Source: Escherichia coli (GTDB taxonomy: Bacteria > Pseudomonadota > Gammaproteobacteria > Enterobacterales > Enterobacteriaceae). Taken from it: a DNA stretch of 64,000 nt. How positions within the stretch are numbered: the first letter of the stretch is position 1; every line of letters begins with the position of its first letter. The stretch lies in the NCBI RefSeq assembly GCF_003790525.1, contig NZ_CP033635.1, one strand, 5' to 3'. Positions 6,954-50,000 of this stretch are shown piece by piece. The translations under genes were made by a program, and so were the position numbers. The notes beneath the pieces were generated by a model. The model had not been told where the DNA came from. It did not search any database and saw only the letters and a list, made by a program, of their open reading frames with translations.

Positions 6954-7742
6954 ATGCAAACGATTATCCGTGTCGAGAAGCTCGCCAAAACCTTCAATCA
7001 GCATCAGGCGCTGCATGCGGTTGATCTGAACATTCATCACGGTGAAATGGTGGCTCTGCTTGGGCCGTCGGGTTCCGGCAAATCCACCCTTTTACGTCAC
7101 TTAAGCGGTTTGATTACCGGCGATAAATCTGCCGGTAGCCATATCGAGCTGCTGGGCCGCACAGTCCAGCGCGAAGGCCGCCTGGCCCGCGATATCCGCA
7201 AAAGCCGCGCCAACACCGGCTACATCTTCCAACAATTCAACCTGGTGAATCGCCTGAGCGTACTGGAGAACGTGCTGATTGGCGCGCTCGGCAGCACGCC
7301 GTTCTGGCGCACCTGTTTTAGCTGGTTCACCCGCGAGCAGAAACAGCGCGCGTTACAGGCGCTGACCCGCGTTGGCATGGTGCATTTTGCCCATCAGCGC
7401 GTTTCCACCCTCTCCGGCGGCCAGCAGCAGCGTGTGGCGATTGCCCGCGCGCTGATGCAGCAGGCGAAGGTGATTCTGGCCGATGAACCCATCGCCTCGC
7501 TGGACCCGGAATCGGCGCGCATCGTGATGGACACCCTGCGCGACATTAACCAGAACGACGGCATTACCGTGGTCGTCACGCTGCATCAGGTGGATTACGC
7601 CCTGCGCTACTGCGAACGCATCGTCGCCCTGCGCCAGGGGCACGTCTTCTACGACGGCAGCAGCCAACAGTTTGATAACGAACGTTTTGACCATCTCTAC
7701 CGCAGCATTAACCGCGTCGAAGAGAACGCGAAAGCTGCCTGA
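6954..7742 (+). CDS. phnC: Phosphonate ABC transporter ATP-binding protein PhnC
   Basis: ORF track; Walker [13 protein letters not shown] signature LSGGQQQR, Walker B ILADEP. Confidence 0.95.
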
Positions 7743-22511: not shown

Positions 22512-23470
22512 AAAGCGAAGCGAGCGAGAAGAAACCGTTCAACTTTGCGCTGTTCTGGGATAAATACGGCACCTTTTTTATCCTGGCGATCATCGTCGCC
22601 ATCTTTGGTTCGCTGTCACCAGAATATTTTCTGACCACCAATAATATTACCCAGATTTTTGTGCAAAGCTCCGTGACGGTATTGATCGGCATGGGCGAGT
22701 TTTTCGCTATCCTGGTCGCTGGTATCGACCTCTCGGTTGGCGCGATTCTGGCGCTTTCCGGTATGGTGACCGCCAAACTGATGTTGGCAGGTGTTGACCC
22801 GTTTCTCGCGGCGCTGATTGGCGGTGTACTGGTTGGCGGCGCACTGGGGGCGATCAACGGCTGCCTGGTCAACTGGACGGGGCTACACCCATTTATTATC
22901 ACCCTTGGTACCAACGCCATTTTCCGTGGGATCACGCTGGTGATCTCCGATGCCAACTCGGTATACGGCTTCTCATTTGACTTCGTGAACTTCTTTGCCG
23001 CCAGCGTAATTGGGATACCTGTTCCCGTTATCTTCTCGCTAATTGTCGCGCTCATCCTTTGGTTTCTGACAACGCGTATGCGGCTCGGACTCAACATCTA
23101 CGCACTGGGCGGCAACAAAAACTCGGCGTTCTATTCCGGGATTGACGTGAAATTCCACATCCTGGTGGTGTTTATCATCTCCGGTGTTTGTGCAGGTCTG
23201 GCAGGCGTCGTCTCAACTGCACGACTCGGTGCCGCAGAACCGCTTGCCGGTATGGGTTTTGAAACCTATGCCATTGCCAGCGCCATCATTGGCGGCACCA
23301 GTTTCTTCGGCGGCAAGGGGCGCATTTTCTCTGTGGTGATTGGCGGGTTGATCATCGGCACCATCAACAACGGTCTGAATATTTTGCAGGTACAAACCTA
23401 TTACCAACTGGTGGTGATGGGCGGATTAATTATCGCGGCTGTCGCCCTTGACCGTCTTATCAGTAAGTAA
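22490..23470 (+). CDS. alsC: D-allose ABC transporter permease AlsC, 326 aa
   Basis: ORF track; multi-TM permease; overlaps alsA 3' end. Confidence 0.95.
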   Translation: MGFTTRVKSEASEKKPFNFALFWDKYGTFFILAIIVAIFGSLSPEYFLTTNNITQIFVQSSVTVLIGMGEFFAILVAGIDLSVGAILALSGMVTAKLMLAGVDPFLAALIGGVLVGGALGAINGCLVNWTGLHPFIITLGTNAIFRGITLVISDANSVYGFSFDFVNFFAASVIGIPVPVIFSLIVALILWFLTTRMRLGLNIYALGGNKNSAFYSGIDVKFHILVVFIISGVCAGLAGVVSTARLGAAEPLAGMGFETYAIASAIIGGTSFFGGKGRIFSVVIGGLIIGTINNGLNILQVQTYYQLVVMGGLIIAAVALDRLISK

Positions 23471-32592: not shown

Positions 32593-34740
32593 ATGAAAAA
32601 AGTCGTCACGGTTTGCCCCTATTGCGCATCAGGTTGCAAAATCAACCTGGTCGTCGATAACGGCAAAATCGTCCGGGCGGAGGCAGCGCAGGGGAAAACC
32701 AACCAGGGTACCCTGTGTCTGAAGGGTTATTATGGCTGGGACTTCATTAACGATACCCAGATCCTGACCCCGCGCCTGAAAACCCCCATGATCCGTCGCC
32801 AGCGTGGCGGCAAACTCGAACCTGTTTCCTGGGATGAGGCACTGAATTACGTTGCCGAGCGCCTGAGCGCCATCAAAGAGAAGTACGGTCCGGATGCCAT
32901 CCAGACGACCGGCTCCTCGCGTGGTACGGGTAACGAAACCAACTATGTAATGCAAAAATTTGCGCGCGCCGTTATTGGTACCAATAACGTTGACTGCTGC
33001 GCTCGTGTCTGACACGGCCCATCGGTTGCAGGTCTGCACCAATCGGTCGGTAATGGCGCAATGAGCAATGCTATTAACGAAATTGATAATACCGATTTAG
33101 TGTTCGTTTTCGGGTATAACCCGGCGGATTCCCACCCAATCGTGGCGAACCACGTAATTAACGCTAAACGTAACGGGGCGAAAATTATCGTCTGCGATCC
33201 GCGCAAAATTGAAACTGCGCGCATTGCTGACATGCACATTGCATTGAAAAACGGCTCGAACATCGCGCTGTTGAATGCGATGGGCCATGTCATTATTGAA
33301 GAAAATCTGTACGACAAAGCGTTCGTCGCTTCCCGTACAGAAGGCTTTGAAGAGTATCGTAAAATCGTTGAAGGCTACACGCCGGAGTCGGTTGAAGATA
33401 TCACCGGCGTCAGCGCCAGTGAGATTCGTCAGGCGGCACGGATGTATGCCCAGGCGAAAAGCGCCGCCATCCTGTGGGGCATGGGTGTAACCCAGTTCTA
33501 CCAGGGCGTGGAAACCGTGCGTTCTCTGACCAGCCTCGCGATGCTGACCGGTAACCTCGGTAAGCCACATGCGGGTGTAAACCCGGTTCGTGGTCAGAAC
33601 AACGTACAGGGTGCCTGCGATATGGGCGCGCTGCCGGATACGTATCCGGGATACCAGTACGTGAAAGATCCGGCTAACCGCGAGAAATTCGCCAAAGCCT
33701 GGGGCGTGGAAAGCCTGCCTGCTCATACCGGTTATCGCATCAGCGAGCTGCCGCACCGCGCAGCGCATGGTGAAGTGCGTGCCGCGTACATTATGGGCGA
33801 AGATCCGCTACAAACTGACGCGGAGCTGTCGGCAGTACGTAAAGCCTTTGAAGATCTGGAACTGGTCATCGTTCAGGACATCTTTATGACCAAAACCGCG
33901 TCGGCGGCGGATGTCATTTTACCGTCAACGTCATGGGGCGAGCATGAAGGCGTGTTTACTGCGGCTGACCGTGGCTTCCAGCGTTTCTTTAAAGCAGTTG
34001 AACCGAAATGGGATTTGAAAACGGACTGGCAAATCATCAGTGAAATCGCCACCCGTATGGGTTATCCGATGCACTACAACAACACCCAGGAGATCTGGGA
34101 TGAGTTGCGTCATCTGTGCCCGGATTTCTACGGTGCGACTTACGAGAAAATGGGCGAACTGGGCTTCATTCAGTGGCCTTGTCGCGATACTTCAGATGCC
34201 GATCAGGGGACTTCTTATCTGTTTAAAGAGAAGTTTGATACTCCGAACGGTCTGGCGCAGTTCTTCACCTGCGACTGGGTAGCGCCAATCGACAAACTCA
34301 CCGACGAGTATCCGATGGTACTGTCAACGGTGCGTGAAGTCGGTCACTACTCTTGCCGTTCGATGACCGGTAACTGTGCGGCACTGGCGGCGCTGGCTGA
34401 TGAACCTGGCTACGCACAAATCAATACCGAAGACGCCAAACGTCTGGGGATTGAAGATGAGGCATTGGTTTGGGTGCACTCGCGTAAAGGCAAAATTATC
34501 ACCCGTGCGCAGGTCAGCGATCGTCCGAACAAAGGGGCGATTTACATGACCTACCAGTGGTGGATTGGTGCCTGTAACGAGCTGGTTACCGAAAACTTAA
34601 GCCCGATTACGAAAACGCCGGAATACAAATACTGCGCCGTGCGCGTCGAGCCGATCGCCGATCAGCGCGCCGCCGAGCAGTATGTGATTGACGAGTACAA
34701 CAAGTTGAAAACTCGCCTGCGCGAAGCGGCACTGGCGTAA
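32593..34740 (+). CDS. fdhF: Formate dehydrogenase H (selenoprotein, molybdopterin enzyme), 715 aa with in-frame UGA at 33010-33012
   Basis: Track ORFs 32593..33012 and 33061..34740 are in the same frame, separated only by a TGA followed by a stem-loop (SECIS); N-terminal Fe-S motif CPYCASGC. Confidence 0.95.
33010..33055 (+). other. UGA selenocysteine codon plus bacterial SECIS stem-loop of fdhF
   Basis: In-frame TGA followed immediately by CACGGCCCATCGGTTGCAGGTCTGCACCAATCGGTCGG hairpin. Confidence 0.8.
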
Positions 34741-37369: not shown

Positions 37370-37966
37370 TTAATCTGATCTCCGCTGCAACAGTTTCGCC
37401 AAATTAATCGACTCGACCAGCTGTGTCCGGTTGATCCGGGGTGAGTTGAGATCCATCACTTTTTGCCATAGTTCGATGGCTTGCGCGTAATTCGCCTGCA
37501 TAAACGCATCGGAAGCCAGCAGCATCAGAGCGGTGATTTCGTTAGAGTCCAGCGCGAGGGCTTTGTCGATCATTGCGCGAGTCTGGGCGGTCATATGCTG
37601 GCTGGCCTGGTAATAAAGCACCGTCGCCAGCGCCGCATACAGTTCAGCGTTCTCACCACGTAGTTGCAACGCCTGACGGTACGCCAGCAGCGAATTGCTG
37701 TAATCGTTTTGCCACAGATAATACTCGCCCAGTAACGCCCATTGTTCGCTGTTTTGTGGATTAGCGCGGATTTTATCCTGCAATGCCTGAAGCTGCGCTT
37801 CCGGGGTTTGCTGGCTGGCAAACTGATGTAGCGGATCGCGCTGACGTTGATACTCCGCACGTACCGCCTGCCATTTTGGGCTTAACAGATAACTGCCGAT
37901 ACAGAGAAATACCATCAAAATCGTGAGTGTTGTCAGCATTTTCACCGGTATTTGAGGCTGTTTCAT
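37370..37966 (-). CDS. nrfG: Nrf heme lyase TPR subunit NrfG, 198 aa
   Basis: ORF track 37370..38032 trimmed to [13 protein letters not shown] start; TPR repeats. Confidence 0.9.
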
Positions 37967-38346
37967 CGCTTCGCCCTCACTCGCCAGAGGATCAGTGCCA
38001 TCAGCAGTAACAACACCACTGGCAGAGCCCACAATACCAGCGTCTGACCCGTTAACGGTGGGTTATAGCGAACAAAATCTCCGTAGCGTTCGGTCATCCA
38101 GCCAATGATTTCGACTTCACTTTTCCCCTCTTCCACCATGCTGTAAACCTGATGGCGCATACTGACCGCCACCGGCGCATTGGATTCCAGTAAGTTCTGA
38201 TTCTGACACTGCGGACAACGTAACTGGCTGGCAATATTTAACGCCTGTTGCTGTTGTTGCGGATTGGCGAATTGCCAGGTGTCTACGACCTGAGCACGCG
38301 CAAAACAGGTAAATAACAGCAGTAGCGTGAGAAGTCCTTTATTCAT
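37963..38346 (-). CDS. nrfF: Nrf heme lyase subunit NrfF (CcmH-like), 127 aa
   Basis: ORF track; CcmH-like LRCPQCQNQ motif. Confidence 0.92.
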
Positions 38347-38391
38347 CGCGCTTCCTCCCCCGCCATCCGCTTAACAATGCGCCCGCAATCA

Positions 38392-39996
38392 TCAACAATC
38401 CTCCCCCCAGATCCAGCGCACACCGCTTTGTACATACAAACGAAAAGCGTAACGATCCGGCCCAGTTTTCTCCCCCATGACCGCATACCAGTCATGGATG
38501 CCGTTCCAGCGAATTGACGGTTCCATCATTTGCTGACGGCGTGCTTCATAAAAACGCCGCTCCGGCGTCAGTTCACCAATACGTTGCTGATGGTCAAACA
38601 GTGCCACTATCGCTTTTTCGCTGGTGTAATTGCCTCTGGCTTGCAGATCGAGACGCTCAAAACGGAAGGCGTATCCTGCCAGCGTCACCTGCTGACCCGG
38701 CTGTAAATTCAGGCTGATCTCCTGACGGCTGACGCTGGAGACCACGATCCCTGCGGCAAATAACAGCACGCCCGCATGCGCCAGCAGCGCCGGAAGCTGC
38801 ACGCGTTTGCCAGAGACAAACGTCGCCAGCACAATCACCACCAGCATCAACAGACCAAACGGTAACGTCGCACGGTTAAAATACGGCGCGCCAACGGAGA
38901 GGCGTCCCCAGCCCAGCAGGCCGTAAATCATCGGATAAAGCGTTCCCACCAGCACGATCAGTAGCACTGCGCAAAACAGCAACAGCGTAGCGAGGATTAA
39001 CATTTCCCGCGATAACCCCGAAAAACGCACCGCCGGGCCACCGTCCCGCGCTCGCCAGCCATACAGAGTCAGAGACGCAAGGCTAATCAGTGCAAACAGG
39101 CTGAACAACGGCACGGCGCGAACGTTATCCAGCGCGAACGCATGAACCGAAACCAGAATGCCAGAACGGACAATTAAGGTGCCCAGCAGCGACAGCATCA
39201 GAGTAACTATCGCCAGTAACAGCGACCAGTGGCGGAAAATCCCCCGCTGGCGTGTCAGGGACAAACTGTGCAGCAGCGCAGTGGCAGAAAGCCAGGGTAA
39301 TAAAGAGGCGTTTTCCACCGGATCCCAGAACCACCAGCCGCCCCAGCCCAGTTCGCAATAGGCCCACCAGGAACCGAGGATGATCCCCGCCGTTAATGCC
39401 CCCCAGCCTGGTAGTGCCCAGCGCCAGCAAATTCGGGCGCAGGTACCATCAAACTCGCCGCGCAGTAAACTCGCCAGCGCCACGCTCGCCGCCACCATCA
39501 AACCGCCGTAGCCGAGATAAAGCAGCGGTGGATGAAAGATAAGACCGGGATGTTGCAGCATCGGATTGAGATCGCGGCCTTCGATTGCTGGCGGAAATAT
39601 CCGCACGAAGGGATCGGACCACAGCACTACAAACAGTAGCAGTGCGGCGAGCATGAGAGATAAAACGGCTAGCGTCAGCGGAAATAGCGGATCGGTTTGC
39701 TGCCGATAATGCCAGGCAAACAGCGCGCTCCAGGCGGAAAGCAGCAGCACCCAAAGCAGCAGCGAACCTTCATGACCGCCCCACACCGCCGCCAGTTTGA
39801 GTTCCCACGACAGCAGGCTGTAGCTATGTTGGGCGACATAAATGACCGAGAAATCGCTGATGAGAAAACAATACGTCAGTACGCCAAAGGCGAGCAGCAG
39901 GAGCGCGAACTGCGCCAGAATGCCGATGCAAGTGAGTCGCATCATGGCAGGCCAGCGCAACCGCACTCCCGCAAAGGCCGTCAACGGGGTCAACAC
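38392..39996 (-). CDS. nrfE: Nrf heme lyase NrfE (CcmF-like), apparently C-terminally truncated by a frameshift; possible pseudogene or sequence error
   Basis: Track ORF 38392..40020 (TTG-called start) trimmed to in-frame GTG; WGGHEGSLLLW CcmF-type motif; ORF ends ...VRWIWGEDC while the expected hydrophobic C-terminus is encoded downstream in another frame. Confidence 0.75.
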   Translation of the reverse strand: MLTPLTAFAGVRLRWPAMMRLTCIGILAQFALLLLAFGVLTYCFLISDFSVIYVAQHSYSLLSWELKLAAVWGGHEGSLLLWVLLLSAWSALFAWHYRQQTDPLFPLTLAVLSLMLAALLLFVVLWSDPFVRIFPPAIEGRDLNPMLQHPGLIFHPPLLYLGYGGLMVAASVALASLLRGEFDGTCARICWRWALPGWGALTAGIILGSWWAYCELGWGGWWFWDPVENASLLPWLSATALLHSLSLTRQRGIFRHWSLLLAIVTLMLSLLGTLIVRSGILVSVHAFALDNVRAVPLFSLFALISLASLTLYGWRARDGGPAVRFSGLSREMLILATLLLFCAVLLIVLVGTLYPMIYGLLGWGRLSVGAPYFNRATLPFGLLMLVVIVLATFVSGKRVQLPALLAHAGVLLFAAGIVVSSVSRQEISLNLQPGQQVTLAGYAFRFERLDLQARGNYTSEKAIVALFDHQQRIGELTPERRFYEARRQQMMEPSIRWNGIHDWYAVMGEKTGPDRYAFRLYVQSGVRWIWGEDC

Positions 39997-40075
39997 GTTG
40001 ACCCCGAGACTTAACAACAACGCCAGAAAACCGACTTCAGGAAGGAATACGTCCAGAAACCACCTCTGTTCTGGC

Positions 40076-48332: not shown

Positions 48333-48350
48333 CGATTACACCGCCAAGCG

Positions 48351-50000
48351 TTATTGGTTCTCTTCAATCAGCAACGCTTCAAGCAAATCGAGATCGTGCA
48401 ATAATTTTTGCAGCGTTTCGTTACTGATCTCCCGCGTGGCGCGCAGGTGGTACAGTTCAGCACGTTCAGAACGCAATGCCGCCAGACGGAAGCGACGCTC
48501 CAGGTTCTCTTCCAGGATTGAACTTTCTACATCATTACGTCCATCGGCGCGACGACGCAGGTTACCAATGACGCGAGAACTAACCTCTGTGAGCAGCTGG
48601 TTATCGATATTCTCTTCGGTATCCGCCGCCAGACGCTCCTCCATTTTCTGGATCGCCACAATCGCCACTTCTGCCGTTGCCGCTCGCGCAATACGTTCCT
48701 CTTTCAATTGTTGCGAATGGTCCGCGACTTCAATGTGTTGTAGCAGAATAGGCAACATCACCACGCCGACAAACAGCGAGAAGAGAATGACACCAGCCGC
48801 CAGGAACACCAGCTCATAGCGCGCCGGGAAGACGTTACCATCCGGCAAGAGCAGCGGGATAGAGAGCACACCGGCCAGAGTGATCGCCCCACGCACCCCG
48901 GCGAAAGACGCGATCAGGATTTCTCGTGTAGTCCACGAACCAAACTCCATCGGCTTCTTCTTCAGGAAGCGGTTGCTGAACTTTTTCATCGTCCACAGCC
49001 AGCCGAAACGGACCAGCATCAGCGCCGCATAAATCAGAATGATATCGGTAAACAGCATCCAGATTTCGACGTTAGGGTCGATTTCTGCCGCCATCAGCGA
49101 CGTCTCCAGAATACCCGGCAGCTGCAGACCTAACAGCAGGAATACCATGCCGTTAAAGACAAATTCCAGCATCGCCCAGGTACTGTTTGCGCGCAGGCGC
49201 ATTGCCAGCGGCGCACGGCGCATCACACCGGAGCGGGTGATGGTCATCCCGGCGGCAACCGCAGCGAGGATGCCGGAAACGCCAATATGTTCGGCAATCA
49301 GATAAGAAGCGAATGGCAGCAAGAACAGTAGAACAATCTGCGTCGCGGGTTCATCACCGCCCCAGCGGCTGAGGAATCGCAGCGAGCGACCGTACAGCCA
49401 GCTCACCACAAAACCGGCGAGAATACCGCCAATGGCCACTTTCATAAATTCGACCGTCGCACCACCGACGGTGAAGATCATCGTCCCCATCGCCACTGCC
49501 ACGGCAAACTTCAACGACACCAGACCGGAGGCGTCATTCATCAACGCTTCGCCCTGCAAAATGCCCATGATTTTTTTCGGGATGCGCCCTTCGCCAACAA
49601 TCCCGGAGAGCGCCACAGCATCGGTCGGAGAAAGCACCGCCGCCAGCGCAAAGGCGGGGATCAGCGGAATGCCCGGCACCACCCAGTAAATAAGGAAGCC
49701 AATGCCGACCACGGTGACCACCACCAGCGCCAGCGCGAGGCCGAAAATCTCTCGCCCATGTTCGAGAAATTCACGGGTCGGCGTTTTCCAGCCATCAGCG
49801 AACAGCAACGGCGGGATAAACAAGACTAAAAAGAGTTCAGGATCAAACTCCACATGCAAACCAAACGTCGGCCACGCCAGTAGCGCACCGATGGCGATTT
49901 GCATAAGCGGAAGCGGGATCTGAAAGGGCATGACACGAGTGACCACCCCGGACAGCGAGACCACGAGGGTCATTATCAGTATGGTGAAGAAGATTTCCAT
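48351..50000 (-). CDS. yjcE: Putative Na+/H+ exchanger YjcE (CPA1 family), 549 aa
   Basis: ORF track; multi-TM with C-terminal cytoplasmic domain. Confidence 0.9.
   Translation of the reverse strand: MEIFFTILIMTLVVSLSGVVTRVMPFQIPLPLMQIAIGALLAWPTFGLHVEFDPELFLVLFIPPLLFADGWKTPTREFLEHGREIFGLALALVVVTVVGIGFLIYWVVPGIPLIPAFALAAVLSPTDAVALSGIVGEGRIPKKIMGILQGEALMNDASGLVSLKFAVAVAMGTMIFTVGGATVEFMKVAIGGILAGFVVSWLYGRSLRFLSRWGGDEPATQIVLLFLLPFASYLIAEHIGVSGILAAVAAGMTITRSGVMRRAPLAMRLRANSTWAMLEFVFNGMVFLLLGLQLPGILETSLMAAEIDPNVEIWMLFTDIILIYAALMLVRFGWLWTMKKFSNRFLKKKPMEFGSWTTREILIASFAGVRGAITLAGVLSIPLLLPDGNVFPARYELVFLAAGVILFSLFVGVVMLPILLQHIEVADHSQQLKEERIARAATAEVAIVAIQKMEERLAADTEENIDNQLLTEVSSRVIGNLRRRADGRNDVESSILEENLERRFRLAALRSERAELYHLRATREISNETLQKLLHDLDLLEALLIEENQ

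Follow-up and report, generated by a model that had tools for sequence, protein, structure and literature searches.

The nrfE gene in this stretch of Escherichia coli DNA ends early, and it raises the question of whether the strain has lost the C-terminus of a haem lyase subunit or whether a single base is missing only from the assembly. NrfA depends on NrfEFG for the attachment of haem at its active-site CXXCK motif, and NrfE, a paralogue of CcmF, is thought to be the lyase core (PMC12285233, PMC3601427); in CcmF, a periplasmic beta domain sits over the haem (PMC10663686). We examined the gene within a window of 64,000 nucleotides, which is the whole stretch analysed and to which all coordinates refer. 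The window is chromosomal, and the operon context nrfABCD-E-FG is present on its minus strand, with each open reading frame matched by a single gene of the SMS-3-5 annotation. The features around the 3' end of nrfE are as follows:

38392-40056, minus strand: nrfE as written, the open frame from CTG 40056 to the premature TGA
38403-38408, minus strand: G6 homopolymer (reference allele G7, one G missing), from alignment to the references
38410-38413, either strand: GATC, a target of Dam methylation, one base away from the G run on its 5' side (gene sense), read from the sequence
38389-38394, minus strand: tandem premature stops TGA TGA after the out-of-frame GEDC, read from the sequence
38339-38407, minus strand: orphaned C-terminal coding segment in the other frame, for a putative last transmembrane helix and basic cytoplasmic tail (6ZMQ alignment and hydropathy)
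38354-38358, minus strand: Shine-Dalgarno sequence GGAGG of nrfF, 7 nt 5' of its ATG, read from the sequence
37963-38346, minus strand: nrfF, intact, 127 aa (open reading frames and annotation)
37370-37966, minus strand: nrfG, intact (coordinates mapped from the SMS-3-5 annotation)

The 3' end of nrfE reads GTG CGC TGG ATC TGG GGG GAG GAT TGT TGA TGA. The frame before the two tandem stops (TGA TGA, 38394-38389) is ...YVQSGVRWIWGEDC, and the product ends ...VRWIWGEDC at 38392. A first-pass annotation of the DNA had given this end and a run of six C on the plus strand at 38403-38408; direct reading agrees with both, and the run is exactly six G in the sense of nrfE. The annotation had also proposed that a C-terminus lies in another frame and closes on a TAA overlapping the nrfF ATG by 8 nt. 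We could read the same arrangement: one added base leads into the frame of a conserved tail, which stops at TAA 38341-38339 and overlaps the nrfF ATG (38346-38344) by 8 nt. In intact NrfE the junction is WIW-GGG-LLM, with three glycines. By alignment to SMS-3-5 and K-12, the in-frame stop/start overlap of nrfE with nrfF is lost through the missing G.

The lengths of 534 aa for the encoded protein and 552 aa for the full-length one, given previously from the GTG start, were both reproduced: translation from GTG 39996 yields 534 aa as written and 552 aa once repaired. The 552-aa protein is the GTG-start model, and one correction is needed here, as the PGAP gene model has 572 aa; from its CTG at 40056, the product is 554 aa as written and 572 aa with 7 G. 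Public data annotate the start in three ways: CTG 40056 (PGAP, 572 aa, a candidate non-canonical start with GAGG 6 nt upstream), GTG 39996 (the UniProt/GenBank K-12 model, 552 aa) and TTG 39960 (Prodigal-type calls, 540 aa). The program-made list of open reading frames begins the gene at TTG 40020.

We then considered what the shift removes. Against the NrfE model NF007691, the window product scored 1120 bits (cut-off 394) and covered model positions 1-552 of 573; against TIGR00353 it scored 795 bits (cut-off 569). By whole-protein score it belongs to the NrfE family, and its coverage stops short of full length, the C-terminal transmembrane helix being absent. The repaired protein spanned positions 1-573 of NF007691 and gained 42 bits over the window product, and the tail added 32 bits with TIGR00353 and 18 bits with TIGR03145. 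The tail also aligned with the C-terminal helix of Thermus thermophilus CcmF (PDB 6ZMQ), VRWIWGGGLLMIAGALLSGW versus VFWMWVAGGLMALGTLYILW. These NCBIfam gains and the 6ZMQ alignment uphold the earlier impression that the lost hydrophobic C-terminus is conserved. Its hydropathy profile is that of a moderately hydrophobic Gly-rich stretch followed by RGRKRDE, a pattern that resembles a terminal membrane-spanning helix closed by basic residues on the cytoplasmic side. Judged by sequence, the lost tail is a genuine part of NrfE.

The remainder of the protein carries the expected motifs (HPP at 175, WWFWDPVEN at 241, LHS at 262, VHAF at 304 and AHAG at 426); the WWD motif and all four conserved histidines lie upstream of the shift, which follows residue 551. 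CcmF, the System I cytochrome c haem lyase seen in 6ZMQ, aligns with its paralogue NrfE over the WWD domain, the four histidines, the periplasmic beta domain and the final helix, with CcmF residues ~627-650 against NrfE 546-569. Unlike CcmF, NrfE is shorter, partners NrfF and NrfG and has the CXXCK motif of NrfA as its target; in the window, the copy as it stands further differs from CcmF in lacking the final helix.

Comparison with near relatives located the change precisely. Against SMS-3-5 and K-12, both of which have G7, nrfE shows a single 1-nt gap, inside the G run, and no other indel across the gene, as expected from the earlier proposal that one missing homopolymer base is the cause. 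No orthologue in the comparison natively ended in WIWGEDC. Two SNPs (7178 and 23091) and the nrfE indel are all that separates the window from SMS-3-5 over the whole 64 kb; with the two sequences otherwise the same, we do not regard the deletion as a chance difference. In the same lineage, at least 17 complete genomes align to 24,001 bases of the window across 24,002 bases of their own, the one extra base being the seventh G. The complete-genome collection held no record of 6 G on the nrfE haplotype of the window. All twenty A/T runs of at least 7 in the window agree with SMS-3-5. No G/C run in the window reaches 7, and with 7 G the nrfE run would be the longest G/C run of the 64 kb.

The two substitutions have different histories. 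The change at 23091 (G>T) is the only private substitution of the window relative to its nearest complete relatives, with KFu014 and SMS-3-5 having G; it lies in codon 201 of alsC on the plus strand (CGC to CTC) and gives R201L in the D-allose ABC permease AlsC. This private nonsynonymous SNP indicates that the strain has some real private divergence. At 7178, the third position of phnC codon 75, the T is private to SMS-3-5, and the C of the window is shared with KFu014 and other lineage members. We considered methylation-motif error as a source of both SNPs and found it uninformative, since 7178 is private to SMS-3-5 and no Dam or Dcm motif is present at 23091. Elsewhere in the window, the yjcE-actP interval (~48350-48450) holds no gene, as in SMS-3-5; K-12-like genomes have espX5/yjcF there, and B2-like genomes have a LysR-family regulator and lrgA/lrgB-like genes. 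Such variation in gene content between lineages is ordinary. An in-frame TGA at 33010-33012 is codon 140 of fdhF (32593-34740, plus strand), encoding formate dehydrogenase H, and is the known selenocysteine codon, no defect.

To place the 6-G allele in the species, we ran exact-flank queries of 65-68 nt against 5,426 complete E. coli genomes. The run was 7 G long in 4,364 records, 6 G in 77 (of 5,321 records), 8 G in about 5 and 5 G in 1, a length spectrum that is strongly deletion-biased; 7 G thus accounts for about 98% of complete genomes and 6 G for about 1.4%. At least six nrfE haplotypes carry the 6-G allele; over 1,650 nt they differ from one another by 26-72 SNPs, which implies independent events. 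The 6-G accessions group by batch of submission (Olsztyn, CP1465xx; Perm, CP1272xx-CP1273xx; CDC, CP0273xx-CP0275xx; ETEC, CP1229xx), and the carriers within one batch are different lineages. In two of four batch genomes examined, a second gene within 40 kb was frameshifted, nrfG in A1.S1.18 and actP in APEC20/16. Further 1-nt homopolymer frameshifts were seen beside the 6-G nrfE, in yjcF of APEC20/16 as well and in nrfC, nrfD and gltP of other public 'complete' assemblies. Such neighbouring homopolymer frameshifts suggest that the 6-G assemblies concerned carry an unpolished long-read consensus.

The identical 6-G allele is already known. PGAP labels nrfE a "frameshifted" pseudogene in all seven 6-G records that we opened, and RefSeq annotates the allele in this way in dozens of genomes; each of the two candidate causes is textbook knowledge. 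The pseudogenes of IHE3034 (ECOK1_RS23615), DH5alpha (CP025520, CDN75_RS16330) and C600 (CM181231, AC5OFA_RS01605) share with the window the 6-G site, the ...WIWGEDC end and a 1,718-nt gene span, and in these genomes nrfE is usually the sole frameshifted gene for tens of kb. They differ from the window in haplotype and in bearing the pseudogene flag, whereas the window product is an ordinary nr protein. At least five 534-aa RefSeq accessions named 'heme lyase CcmF/NrfE family subunit' are 6-G truncated forms of different haplotypes (WP_263971958.1, WP_236922074.1, WP_249528239.1, WP_245394388.1 and WP_244404793.1). In the literature on nrfE frameshifts and pseudogenes, the sole E. coli case that we found is p.Gln471* (PMC12303837), which lies outside the G run; a Salmonella paper merely lists the name of the gene.

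We next asked whether the missing base follows strains or assemblies. This base is the only difference between DH5alpha CP025520 (6 G) and NEB 5-alpha in 40,000 nt, and likewise between the C600 assemblies CM181231 (6 G) and CP031214 (7 G) in 10,001 nt. Nine other DH5alpha/DH1 records (two of NEB 5-alpha, two of DH5a and five of DH1) have 7 G, as do dozens of other K-12 derivatives. The 6 G of IHE3034 is likewise private: its 29 closest complete genomes, among the matches listed, all have 7 G. No clade sharing 6 G was found in the lineages tested (ST354-like, K-12 derivatives and ST95), where the allele is always private or terminal. A clean region from which only this G is missing therefore recurs assembly by assembly and does not follow clades.

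The size of the contigs on which the truncated gene occurs pointed in the same direction. In a large protein and contig index, which calls nrfE from the TTG (540 aa intact, 522 aa truncated), blocks of the K-12 haplotype were distributed by their longest contig as follows:

longest contig below 20 kb: 175 truncated, 11,616 intact
longest contig 20 kb to 1 Mb: 0 truncated, 4,447 intact
longest contig above 1 Mb: 57 truncated, 203 intact

For this haplotype, the truncated form thus makes up 22% of the blocks above 1 Mb against none of the 4,447 mid-size blocks (Fisher p = 4e-75), and its upper bound in the mid-size blocks is about 0.07%. The index states no platforms; mid-size contigs are probably the usual product of short-read isolate drafts. 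The recurrent -1 call is strongly associated with chromosome-scale, long-read-type assemblies. Within 5.6 kb, several chromosome-scale 6-G carriers contain more 1-nt indels in homopolymers, with nrfC, nrfD and gltP among the genes split, and a 175-kb draft carrier has two further 1-nt homopolymer indels. No further indel is seen over 3-4.5 kb in three short Logan contigs that have the 6-G run on a haplotype like that of IHE3034. Visible noise is absent from these short 6-G contigs, and this line of evidence does not discriminate error from mutation.

The truncated protein of the window was itself searched for by exact lookup of eight start variants (554, 542, 541, 534, 533, 524, 522 and 517 aa). 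On the SMS-3-5 haplotype, none of the eight turned up on an indexed contig; the 534-aa form alone is on record, as WP_263971958.1 in nr, with no contig attached. The intact allele of the same haplotype is on 943 contigs (572 aa) and 229 contigs (540 aa), mostly of 50 kb-1 Mb.

The first-pass annotation had left the choice between a homopolymer sequencing error and a genuine truncation. Both alternatives still stand, with the population evidence leaning towards assembly error. We consider an under-called homopolymer, that is, a consensus or basecalling error in the assembly, the most likely source of the missing G. On this account, the G7 run beside the Dam site would have been under-called by one base in the consensus, and the strain itself would keep a normal 7-G nrfE, with a full-length haem-lyase subunit and a stop overlapping the nrfF start. 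The adjacency of GATC, the Dam site, may be relevant to basecalling error at the G run. Among near-identical genomes, a single assembly has the variant, and miscalls of the same kind have arisen independently elsewhere, with a bias to deletion and a tie to error-prone or long-read assemblies; the window probably belongs to this class of recurrent -1 calls. Long-read errors are mainly homopolymer indels, most of them false deletions (PMC12007338). The nrfE 6-G calls share with the gene-fragmenting deletions of long-read (ONT, PacBio) and flow-chemistry data (PMC12007338) the loss of a single base in the longest local homopolymer, and they have the deletion bias, batch clustering, chromosome-scale enrichment and same-strain disagreement in common with such errors. 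Unlike long-read assemblies with these errors, the window shows no second one in 64 kb.

That absence of any other indel speaks against an under-call, yet DH5alpha CP025520 is equally clean. The private SNP at 23091 also counts against it, and G7 runs are genuine slippage hot spots too. A real -1 slipped-strand mutation in the nrfE G7 run, after which NrfE would end ...WIWGEDC in the periplasm without its last helix and basic tail, is a tentative alternative that we rate as rather unlikely. It has in its favour that the deletion is present in the sequence as the sole indel in 64 kb, that the strain carries at least one private SNP and that the motifs upstream of the shift are intact. The tail is conserved (42, 32 and 18 bits; 6ZMQ alignment), so its loss should matter, and NrfEFG is needed for haem attachment to CXXCK (PMC12285233, PMC3601427); loss of nrfE is nonetheless tolerated in laboratory culture, as Q471* arose in adaptive evolution (PMC12303837). 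The Logan contigs that have 6 G and no other indels, on another haplotype, also leave room for real 6-G variants. Several observations argue against such a mutation here: 6 G was never shared by a clade in the ST354-like, K-12 derivative or ST95 lineages tested, it was found in none of the 4,447 mid-size blocks of the K-12 haplotype, chromosome-scale and visibly noisy assemblies have more than their share of it, and assemblies of the same laboratory strains disagree at this very base. Were the source an Illumina draft, an artefact would become much less likely and a real mutation would be the better reading.

Two wider readings are less probable again. The G7 run may be a real, recurrent mutational hot spot that knocks out the Nrf haem lyase on terminal branches with occasional +1 reversion, which we regard as improbable. 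Still less credible, to the point of being very improbable, is a functional switch, either a phase-variable contingency locus that toggles Nrf activity or a site at which programmed -1 slippage, ribosomal or transcriptional, would yield some full-length NrfE from the 6-G allele. Alleles of both -1 and +1 type do exist in public genomes (77 with 6 G, about 5 with 8 G), and a P-site GGG on the G run could conceivably let tRNA-Gly slip by -1. The poly-G contingency loci of Neisseria, Haemophilus and Helicobacter likewise consist of a coding G tract whose change in length switches the frame. Unlike them, however, the nrfE tract has only 7 nt, a short length for such a locus, and no stimulatory element came to notice; its off allele is rare (6 G, ~1.4%), terminal in the tested lineages and never clonal, with no clade-level inheritance, and it is absent from the mid-size draft contigs (0 of 4,447 blocks, K-12 haplotype). 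With 7 G the gene is in frame in about 98% of genomes. Orthologues are in frame with 7 G and the family models are single-frame, which differs from programmed frameshifting of the prfB or dnaX type. Error explains the same-strain discordance more simply, and the population data, in the lineages tested and the mid-size blocks, gave no evidence of regulated switching at the tract.

If the deletion were real, the catalytic motifs would be kept, and a periplasmic beta domain of ~100 residues would be anchored on one side only. The NrfEFG lyase would then likely be misfolded, unstable or inactive, leaving NrfA without its CXXCK active-site haem, and formate-dependent nitrite reduction would probably be lost, a modest strain-level phenotype in a well-understood pathway. 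The downstream genes should be largely spared. Having its own GGAGG, nrfF can presumably initiate without coupling to the termination of nrfE, and because of this Shine-Dalgarno sequence and an untranslated gap of only 45 nt, little polarity on nrfF and nrfG would be expected; we considered strong Rho-dependent or translational polarity on nrfFG and, for the same two reasons, judged it to be minor. Were the run a true hot spot, a small fraction of natural and laboratory E. coli, among them this ST354-like strain, IHE3034 and some K-12 stocks, would silently lack respiratory nitrite ammonification.

Whether artefact or real, the 6-G deletion in nrfE is ordinary. If it is an under-call, as we favour, the nrfE G7 site yields a false pseudogene or a false 534-aa entry in ~1-2% of complete E. 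coli assemblies and might be used as a rapid check on how well homopolymers were polished. Neither pseudogene counts nor inferences on nitrite ammonification, be they pan-genomic or metabolic, should in that case rest on the nrfE G7 call.
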